Shown: in pieces, positions 38,828 through 39,707 of the stretch
How the letters are laid out: the number at the start of each line of letters is the position of its first letter
How positions within the stretch are numbered: the stretch's first letter is position 1
From: a virus
Taxonomy: Duplodnaviria > Heunggongvirae > Uroviricota > Caudoviricetes
Length of the DNA stretch: 42,138 nt
Direction: 5' to 3' (one strand)
Virus record (IMG/VR): IMGVR_UViG_2737471818_000002
Coordinates: 1-42,138 of that record
The notes under the pieces: model-generated
Database searches by the model: none
Told to the model about the DNA's origin: nothing
Seen by the model: the letters and a program-made list of their open reading frames with translations, nothing else
Position numbers and translations under genes: made by a program

Positions 38828-39621
38828 TTAATCGAATCAAGCTGGAGCACATCCTCGAGTATGCCAGACAGCAGAGGCATATTGGCCAGCATTGTAAAAT
38901 TCCACCAGAAGATATGGTTGAAATCGTGGAAATGGCCATGCGTAAGGCTGGCAACTCTCCGGTAACCCCGGCTCGCCTGCCTGGTGGTTTCACCATTGAG
39001 GATGCGAAGGAATTACATGAAGACCTGGTTCGCAGTCACATAAGCCAGGCTTTAAGTGGTGAAAAGATGAAAAAGAACGATCGCGATGCTGATTTGCGCT
39101 GGATTCATGGCGTAATAGTTCAGGCAGCGTGGTTTGTAAAGGCATCACTGGAGCAGAATGCACTATCGGGCAACTCTCCGGTAATTCCTGGTGAGGTGTT
39201 GTCCGCAATCCGGGAGGTTGCCAGGATTCGTGCCGATTTCGATGATTTTGACGGTGACAGGCGAGGTATCGGTGATTGTCTGGATGAGGCTGAGCAAGAG
39301 CTTATCGTTACCATTAACAAATATGCCAGTCAGTTGGCAGCAGAACCTATAGCGCCTAATGACGTTCGAGAGCAGACAGCCATTCCACAAGTTCCGGTAA
39401 CTCCGGATGGTTGGATAAGCTGTAGTGATCGAATGCCGGAAGACACCAAAATGTTACTGGCATTTAGTCAAGGTCAAATAGTGGCAGCATATTGGAACTG
39501 GGTAATGAGTCCAATTGATTACAAAAAATATAGAGCTTTCACATATTTATCAGGAAATATCTTGGATGACGTAACCCACTGGATGACGCTGCCAGAACCG
39601 CCGGAGCAGGATGGTGAATGA
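38824..39621 (+). CDS. DUF551 domain-containing protein
   Basis: 265-aa ORF; C-terminal WISCSDRMPE...THWMTLPEPP matches the DUF551 signature. Confidence 0.6.
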   Translation: MINRIKLEHILEYARQQRHIGQHCKIPPEDMVEIVEMAMRKAGNSPVTPARLPGGFTIEDAKELHEDLVRSHISQALSGEKMKKNDRDADLRWIHGVIVQAAWFVKASLEQNALSGNSPVIPGEVLSAIREVARIRADFDDFDGDRRGIGDCLDEAEQELIVTINKYASQLAAEPIAPNDVREQTAIPQVPVTPDGWISCSDRMPEDTKMLLAFSQGQIVAAYWNWVMSPIDYKKYRAFTYLSGNILDDVTHWMTLPEPPEQDGE

Positions 39622-39707
39622 TGCCGCCAGTTAAAGTTGTGATTATCACTTTGGTGATAATAGTGATTGCGAGAATCATGTCTGGTGAAATTGGGTGGAT
39701 ATGGTAA
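39618..39707 (+). CDS. Small hydrophobic peptide (29 aa), translationally coupled to the DUF551 gene
   Basis: ATGA start/stop overlap; MMPPVKVVIITLVIIVIARIMSGEIGWIW is a single predicted TM helix. Confidence 0.3.
   Translation: MMPPVKVVIITLVIIVIARIMSGEIGWIW

Follow-up and report, generated by a model that had tools for sequence, protein, structure and literature searches.

The question raised by this locus is whether a 29-codon open reading frame (ORF) at the end of an early-left prophage operon is a gene for a small membrane peptide or a piece of DNA that recombination has left open by chance. The window, which denotes the whole stretch of DNA that was analyzed (42,138 nucleotides), had been the subject of an original prediction that described a translationally coupled, hydrophobic 29-aa peptide with tandem terminators immediately behind its gene. 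With a probability of roughly one half, we read the ORF as a real accessory gene, non-essential, which would encode a translationally coupled, 29-residue, single-helix candidate peptide of the inner membrane.

A putative short cistron between the DUF551 gene and a PHROG-536 relic

The window comprises a complete P22-like prophage with a layout like that of KplE1/CPS-53. Near its left end, the tRNA-Arg(CCT) gene (1009-1083), the only Rfam match in the window that reached threshold, is followed by the tyrosine integrase gene (1209-2402) and by ORFs that we take, from the layout, to be gtrABC. The late genes occupy the minus strand. A c2/cI-type repressor gene (32718-33368, plus strand) and the gene for P22 Cro (32452-32637, minus strand) belong to the immunity region. 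From there, the plus-strand operon runs from a weak N-peptide match (33889-34188, plus strand, below the Pfam cut-off) through the genes for Erf, P22 Abc2 (anti-RecBCD) and an Ea22-like protein (38189-38827, plus strand) to the directly following DUF551 gene of the P22 EaA type (38824..39621, plus strand; Pfam PF04448, residues 196-261, E 2e-20). This gene order, with the repressor and with P22 Cro on the opposite strand, confirmed the placement of the ORF at the end of the early-left operon, and the ORF most likely belongs to the lambdoid/P22-like early-left accessory region ('ea', exo-xis type). Farther downstream are a 72-aa gene (39796..40014, plus strand) with a weak PHROG 9518 match, a truncated Xis-like ORF, a gene for a 66-aa excisionase (40161-40361) annotated as 'TorI' in RefSeq relatives, and the likely att core (40435-40449), where 15 nt from the 3' end of the tRNA are repeated, beyond which we recognized what is presumably the chromosomal sucrose permease gene cscB.

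The ORF itself occupies positions 39618..39707 on the plus strand, reads ATG ATG CCG ... TGG TAA and encodes MMPPVKVVIITLVIIVIARIMSGEIGWIW, as seen in the sequence and the ORF list. Its first ATG (39618-39620) shares bases with the stop codon of the DUF551 gene (GAA TGA, forming ATGA), just as had been proposed, and a second ATG follows directly at 39621. A Shine-Dalgarno-like sequence, AGGAtGGTGA (39608..39617, plus strand), lies inside the last DUF551 codons; its AGGA is separated by 6 nt from the first ATG and its GGTGA by 3 nt from the second, a good match at a spacing workable for either start. Most of the 34 unique aligned copies share the CAGGATGGTGAAT stretch of this region without change. 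A frameshift fusion of DUF551 and the peptide was considered and rejected on account of a TGA in the ORF frame immediately before the ORF ATG.

At its other end, the ORF shares a base of its stop codon with the start codon of the next gene (TAATG), of which the window retains a relic (39707..39736, plus strand). This remnant of a PHROG-536 'transcriptional regulator' consists of ATG and 8 codons (MAKAAAERN, surviving codons 39707-39733) and ends with a TAA at 39734-39736, one base before the stem of the first terminator; its residues 1-8 matched positions 39707-39730 at 100% in tblastn. The full 112-aa gene (MAKAAAERKAAQRARQ...), which was assigned to PHROG 536 'transcriptional regulator' with an E value of 4e-54, starts at the ORF stop as TAATG in four relatives (L037, L039, L046, and L142) and overlaps the ORF stop also in L040, where it is cut off by the contig end; three further hits (L047, L055, and L057) were contigs already among L037, L039, L040 and L046 and not extra loci. 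The probability that the downstream TAATG overlap arose by chance was estimated at about 0.04, and it was found independently of the features on which the original prediction was based. To judge from these relatives, the ORF fills exactly the interval between two real genes, from stop codon to start codon. The coupled-cistron architecture that had been predicted was thereby strengthened, with the ATGA overlap, an SD-like sequence of its own and the downstream stop/start overlap in relatives.

Both terminators of the original prediction proved to be real, but they do not follow immediately, being preceded by a 30-nt spacer (39708-39737) that holds the PHROG-536 relic. The first intrinsic terminator, T1 (39738..39767, plus strand), has a 9-bp stem, an ACTC loop and a TCTTTTAT tail, and its hairpin (39738-39759) had a folding energy of -13.1 kcal/mol (z -5.5), beating 200 of 200 shuffles, with a T tract. 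The second, T2 (39770..39797, plus strand), has an 8-bp stem, a TACG loop and a TTTTGTTTTAT tail, and its hairpin (39770-39789) reached -11.9 kcal/mol (z -4.8), likewise ahead of 200/200 shuffles and with a T tract. The 72-aa gene can be reached only by read-through of both. A hairpin equivalent to T1, with another stem sequence, is present in Salmonella phage UPF_BP1.

Mosaic distribution, composition and variation of the ORF

In the P22-like Salmonella phages ST160 and SPN9CC, the DUF551 gene ends with ...PPQQ-TAA directly before T1 and lacks the QDGE tail. Relative to these phages, a block of approximately 125 nt is inserted in the window, consisting of the ORF, preceded by the QDGE-stop tail with its SD-like sequence and followed by the PHROG-536 stub. 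The four codons at the end of the DUF551 gene (Q-D-G-E) and the TGA thus belong to the inserted block and carry both the SD-like sequence and the ORF start, and the SD-like sequence lies to the right of the left mosaic junction. Among 64 collected copies, about 12-15 different DUF551 bodies were found ahead of the block, and four arrangements occurred downstream of it, namely, T1-T2 in at least 51 copies, the full-length PHROG-536 gene in 9, T1 only in 1 and a deletion in 1. The left junction was always upstream of the SD-like sequence, inside the DUF551 tail, and the right junction was at or beyond the next start codon. Such a junction pattern is typical of lambdoid gene modules, and on this comparison the SD-like sequence, the ORF and the next start appear to travel together.

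The ORF was detected in 222 of 5,426 complete E. coli genomes (~4%), many of them O157:H7 and including E. coli HS, and a match to the T1-T2 region was ten times commoner (2,299/5,426). It was also present in ten phage records, including the Stx2-converting phages 1717 and 2851 and Escherichia phages E212 and EC.P3, and a scan of IMG/VR with anchors in or beside the ORF yielded 40 loci. A tblastn search against phages returned only these 10 records, all near-identical, with no homologue that was longer or more divergent, so the ORF does not appear to be part of a longer known phage gene. A degenerate back-translated pattern of the helix core added one new close variant from IMG/VR (L142); in the one-genome-per-species collection, the helix-core pattern gave one hit (L143), rejected as a low-complexity false match, and an exact 30-nt pattern found no match. 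From these pattern searches, the ORF family appears confined to phages of E. coli/Shigella.

The slot of the ORF is occupied by an unrelated 90-aa coiled-coil gene in UPF_BP1 and is empty in N7 and P22-like phages. In BY68 and PEC411 the match starts only at nucleotide 26 of the ORF, with the remainder in BY68 fused after abc. Many, if not most, relatives are thus without the ORF, which marks it as dispensable. The ORF was unannotated in every RefSeq/GenBank record examined (RefSeq/PGAP). Public protein collections (nr etc.) nevertheless contain this exact peptide, together with three variants, as 'hypothetical/uncharacterised protein', for example in the entries SRN41510.1 (Shigella flexneri), BBC51094.1 (O157:H7) and DAH57015.1 (Caudoviricetes). 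No match of the peptide was obtained in Pfam, PHROGs, NCBIfam or PADLOC, even at E values up to 1 or 10, and the peptide string was absent from the searched full-text literature and from the supplementary files of PMC11188072.

The hydrophobic character that had been ascribed to the 29-aa peptide was evident, with a GRAVY of 1.69 and a V/I-rich core. In dinucleotide-preserving shuffles that remained open the GRAVY averaged 0.38 ± 0.44, and 0.16% of them reached the observed value (P ≈ 0.002); the hydrophobicity is phase-specific and beyond what base composition predicts. The length of the ORF alone is unremarkable, since the 29-codon frame stayed open in 13% of the dinucleotide-preserving shuffles. 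All of the eight internal plus-strand stop triplets fall in the other two frames, for which (2/3)^8 = 0.04. The 15-residue core V7-M21 had a Kyte-Doolittle (KD) mean of 3.07 and a summed dG on the Hessa scale of about -2.3 kcal/mol; it contains Arg19 and is flanked by K6 and SGE...GWIW, and windows of 19-21 residues of the peptide gave a positive summed dG on the same scale. In a codon model trained on the long genes of the same prophage, the ORF scored +1.9 bits, corresponding to the 98.6th percentile of off-frame windows and to the 9th percentile of real in-frame windows.

Variation was analyzed in an alignment of 34 unique sequences from 63 copies, one of which (L136) is truncated at its 5' end. 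All ORF copies were at least 95% identical, which points to a young block. Within codons 3-29 no indels were found among the 34 sequences, whereas the approximately 25 nt just upstream carry at least three different ones. Outside the start codons, and with L142 included, five synonymous changes (codons 7, 7, 9, 13, and 20) and eight non-synonymous changes (P3L, P4S, I10T, M14I, I25V, G26W, G26V, and W29stop) were counted, a ratio not different from the neutral expectation. Within the helix core, five synonymous changes stood against two conservative replacements (I10T and M14I), the core partition being post hoc. The third positions of the ORF are also the third positions of the antisense frame, where the synonymous sites are silent too, and the substitution pattern therefore cannot tell the strands apart. 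The antisense frame itself, a minus-strand ORF of 69 aa (39539-39748), was rejected as an antisense shadow, with a start in the T1 loop, no SD and ends that shift with context.

The start codons varied more. The variant ATAATG keeps the second ATG in a TAATG overlap, a 1-nt deletion leaves an in-frame GTG, and an in-frame start was kept in all copies except L012, which has no ATG. The frame was intact in 31 of 35 unique sequences, the exceptions being L012, L018 (W29stop), L007/L139 (GTG, one unique sequence) and the truncated BY68.

Of the alternatives, the one that survives best, and which we regard as possible but rather unlikely, is that the ORF is non-functional, an 87-nt recombination linker that is open and hydrophobic by chance and is perhaps translated incidentally through the ATGA overlap; in the window it would be the remnant of a three-gene string with the last gene deleted. 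This is favored by the share of shuffles in which the frame stays open, by the neutral 5:8 ratio of synonymous to non-synonymous changes, by the high identity everywhere, through which apparent conservation may be no more than youth, by the damaged copies (L012, L018, and BY68), by the absence from most relatives, and by the lack of a PGAP call in any record examined. Small hydrophobic ORFs between genes, moreover, abound in Enterobacteriaceae, and of those that are translated the majority show no signs of selection (PMC11188072), which fits the same alternative. Apart from the share of open shuffles, all these points of the alternative weigh against a real gene as well, together with the shadow frame, the core of only 15 residues with Arg19 in it, and the lack of a family match. 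A non-functional linker, however, fits less well with the phase-specific hydrophobicity (P ≈ 0.002), with the exact stop/start overlaps on both sides and the SD-like sequence, with an ORF body free of indels despite those just upstream, and with the concentration of synonymous changes in the helix core. The preferred reading, that of a real accessory gene, draws on these same observations and, in addition, on the block-wise mosaicism, the codon model and the independent gene callers.

Relay, toxin and nucleic acid element readings

A second alternative holds that the act of translating the frame matters and not the peptide, and that the ORF serves as a cis-acting translational relay that couples PHROG-536 to the upstream gene and shields the spacer from Rho or RNases. 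In its favor, the ORF covers precisely the interval between the upstream stop codon and the downstream start codon, amino acids outside the core vary freely (P3L, P4S, I25V, G26W/V, and W29stop), and the last codons, GGG TGG ATA TGG, place an SD-like GGTGG at a distance of 8 nt from the ATG of PHROG-536. A relay, however, needs no hydrophobic phasing. A comparable junction, such as a TGATG overlap, links other upstream genes to PHROG-536, which shows that in other phages this gene is joined to its upstream neighbor with no spacer ORF at all. The downstream gene is also gone in 51 of the 64 copies, in which the ORF remains intact. We therefore consider a relay improbable.

Several searches addressed the possibility of a regulatory RNA or DNA element. 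Immediately upstream of the ORF, no promoter-like site on the plus strand and no long 5' untranslated region (UTR) were found; the nearest plus-strand site (39218-39246), a weak 9-of-12 match, falls within the DUF551 gene at a distance of approximately 370 nt. On the minus strand, the ORF itself contains a weak promoter-like site (39684 to 39657, 9/12 matches), and the region held 3 promoter-like sites in all, compared to 5.8 expected from shuffles. Near the ORF, neither a matching antisense terminator nor a convincing antisense RNA gene was found. Rfam 15 gave no match at the ORF, either at the gathering threshold or at E values up to 10, and the best local score was that of FtrB (23.9 bits against a gathering threshold of 66, E 0.29). 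The fold of the ORF region alone was unremarkable (z -1.6). In minimum free energy and centroid folds of 39596-39800, T1 and T2 formed separate hairpins, and no antiterminator helix competed with them.

Among known small RNAs, the prophage sRNAs AgvB and AsxR were rejected as candidates for this locus, both being located 3' of PR' (PMC4104026), and Pas sRNA was rejected likewise, its paper showing no link to the ORF region.

Inside the ORF, an inverted repeat with a perfect 8-bp stem, ATTATCAC-TTTG-GTGATAAT (39642..39661), is of doubtful significance. It folds with -8.0 kcal/mol (z -4.4), and one of its stem pairs varies compatibly (U-A, U.G, and C-G), but two other natural variants break the stem. 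One change, the synonymous G>U at 13.3, breaks the internal RNA hairpin and keeps the residue, and in the most common allele the inverted DNA repeat is imperfect. The lambda-operator-like half sites TATCAC/GTGATA in the repeat were judged coincidental, with wrong spacing and with an imperfect repeat in the commonest allele.

These observations bear on a heterogeneous third alternative, that the locus is a type I toxin-like membrane toxin, a 3'-end-derived sRNA, a T1/T2 leader-peptide attenuator or a protein-binding inverted repeat. Such elements are suggested by a size and composition like those of the 29-aa toxins TisB and ZorO, by the minus-strand promoter-like site, by the perfect repeat and by the stop of the relic mini-ORF one base before the T1 stem. 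The ORF would, however, if translated, be an internal coupled cistron, and with no promoter of its own and no convincing antisense RNA gene found it does not have the makeup of a type I toxin locus; the promoter-like sites are fewer than in shuffles, and no Rfam family is represented. An attenuator is contradicted by the independent folding of T1 and T2 with no competing helix and by the second terminator itself, as T2 would still terminate transcription with a ribosome masking T1. Given in addition the natural variants that break the hairpin and the imperfect repeat of the most common allele, this group of explanations is very improbable.

Proposed role and comparison with known systems

In the preferred reading of the ORF as a real accessory gene, PL transcription after infection or induction would run through erf, abc, ea22 and the DUF551 gene. 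Ribosomes ending DUF551, where the SD-like AGGAtGGTGA in the last four codons and the overlap of the ORF AUG with the DUF551 UGA would allow it, may re-initiate or initiate at the ORF. The MMPPVK head, the 15-residue V/I core and the GWIW aromatic tail of the product would, as predicted from hydrophobicity only, lead to its insertion into the inner membrane, where the peptide would, in the manner of other bacterial micropeptides, bind or perturb either the bilayer or a membrane protein. The role of a membrane-active toxin or regulator, which the original prediction had suggested, was neither favored nor contradicted by the sequence data. The comparison of relatives shows that the ORF stop once overlapped the PHROG-536 start in a string of three coupled cistrons, of which the last was deleted in the window to 8 codons and fused to T1. 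The peptide is dispensable, as shown by the many relatives that do without the ORF.

A far-reaching extension, to which we give very little weight, is that the chain of DUF551, ORF and relic could stop ribosomes one base before T1 and thus tune the read-through to the 72-aa gene and the TorI-type excisionase, which would link translation of the early operon to excision; separately, the peptide, whose ORF is carried by Stx2-converting prophages of O157:H7, could act on a host membrane protein as a new phage micropeptide.

If the peptide is made, an unannotated membrane micropeptide would be added to the ea/exo-xis region of lambdoid/P22-like prophages, the ORF being carried by ~4% of the complete E. 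coli genomes, with many O157:H7 among these, and by the Stx2-converting phages 1717 and 2851. The ORF would also exemplify how a coupled small cistron can be missed by RefSeq annotation. If it is non-functional, it would illustrate cleanly how mosaic recombination can make and spread a small ORF that looks like a gene. On either reading the consequence is modest and local.

In comparison to the predicted intergenic microproteins of Enterobacteriaceae (the 'Entero67K' set), the ORF is likewise a short, hydrophobic, transmembrane-like frame between annotated genes, and a minority of such ORFs are reported to begin at most 10 nt from, or to overlap, the stop or start of a neighbor (PMC11188072). 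That set is, in contrast, defined by selection, whereas the ORF stands at 5:8 changes and its peptide is absent from the supplementary files of the study.

Genes VII and IX of the filamentous phages f1/M13, an unrelated phage group, encode hydrophobic virion structural proteins of 32-33 aa, whose translation is coupled to the upstream gene. The ORF shares with them a predicted hydrophobic phage protein of about 30 residues and an overlapping or abutting upstream cistron, but it shows no homology and lies in the non-essential early-left region of a tailed temperate phage. The type I toxins, among them TisB and ZorO (29 aa), Hok, Ibs and Ldr, resemble the predicted product in length and in the hydrophobic helix of a possibly membrane-active peptide, but no dedicated promoter, structured 5' UTR or credible antisense RNA gene was found for the ORF.

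Enterobacteria possess small single-helix inner-membrane proteins, for example, KdpF (29 aa), AcrZ, MgtS and PmrR. Like these, the predicted peptide has approximately 29 aa, one hydrophobic helix, charged or aromatic flanks and no domain, and like them it belongs to a class that usually goes unannotated. In contrast to them, it shows no sequence similarity, its membrane location is a prediction, and the ORF is phage-borne and lies in an early operon with no adjacent partner gene.

The exo-xis region of lambda and Stx phages contains the genes ea22, orf60a, orf61, orf63, orf73 and ea8.5. The ORF is homologous to none of them, and no lambda exo-xis gene is known to encode a hydrophobic peptide of about 30 aa. 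Like them, it lies in the early stretch that separates the recombination genes from xis, among small, mosaic and poorly characterized genes. Genes of the ea/exo-xis region have been reported to influence the choice between lysis and lysogeny, and the position of the ORF directly after the Ea22-like and DUF551 genes matches the ea22 context of that region (PMC10834534).

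Tandem terminators and the PHROG-536 stub

The tandem intrinsic terminators T1 and T2 (window 39738-39797), which follow the early-left operon, are a very widespread mosaic module: among 5,426 complete E. coli genomes, 2,299 contain a match, as do many P22-like Salmonella phages. The last operon genes preceding the module differ, namely, DUF551/EaA or an ASCH-domain gene, and in the arrangements examined the stop of a translated frame lay 1 to 3 nt ahead of the T1 stem. In the window, a nine-codon mini-ORF, MAKAAAERN-stop (39707-39736), overlaps the stop of the small hydrophobic ORF (39618-39707) as TAATG. 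The mini-ORF is what remains of the 5' end of a deleted gene of PHROG-536, a family annotated as "transcriptional regulator," and is joined to T1. A comparable stub, MAKSPAERN-stop, was found ahead of T1 in Salmonella phage UPF_BP1 (locus L035, about 1516-1545).

Two IMG/VR contigs (loci L046/L047 and L039/L055) have kept the full string of DUF551, small ORF, and PHROG-536 genes, and their genome organization differs from that of the window. A terminator closes their early-left operon and is directly followed by a putative small terminase subunit gene, assigned by eye, with xis and int absent between the two.

Variation in the DUF551 tail and the small ORF

Frameshifts are tolerated in the C-terminal tail of DUF551 (window 39603-39621; relatives L012, L015, L030, L032, and L138). 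A recurrent 1-nt deletion, CCGCCGGAGCAGG to CCGCCGAGCAGG, was accompanied by the change of TGA to TAA; through the deletion, DUF551 comes to end 13 nt inside the small ORF, in a different frame from it. Within the small ORF, the window carries a perfect inverted repeat, ATTATCAC-TTTG-GTGATAAT (39642-39661), whose half sites, although separated by a 4-bp spacer, are similar to lambda-operator half sites (TATCAC/GTGATA). The commonest allele has an imperfect version of the repeat, and the likeness to the lambda operator is probably coincidental.

Excisionase region and prophage ends

Further downstream, a truncated Xis-like ORF of 31 aa beginning with MESHSLTLDEACSFLKISRHT (40029-40124) runs into a terminator-like hairpin (40095-40110), and the start of the same gene stands directly after T1 in UPF_BP1. 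This ORF looks like the remnant of a second, P22-type excisionase next to the TorI-type one. The latter, a 66-aa recombination directionality factor (40161-40361), lies at the prophage end opposite the integrase gene (1209-2402), which adjoins argW; in strains BY68 and LR-03, RefSeq annotates the ORF matched to it by position as "response regulator inhibitor TorI." The 15-nt sequence CTGCAGGGGACACCA is repeated in direct orientation at 1069-1083 and 40435-40449, one copy forming the 3' end of tRNA-Arg(CCT) and the other located downstream of torI, and is likely the att core bounding a prophage of ~39.4 kb. Integrase and directionality factor at opposite ends constitute the layout of KplE1/CPS-53, here in an apparently complete P22-like prophage.
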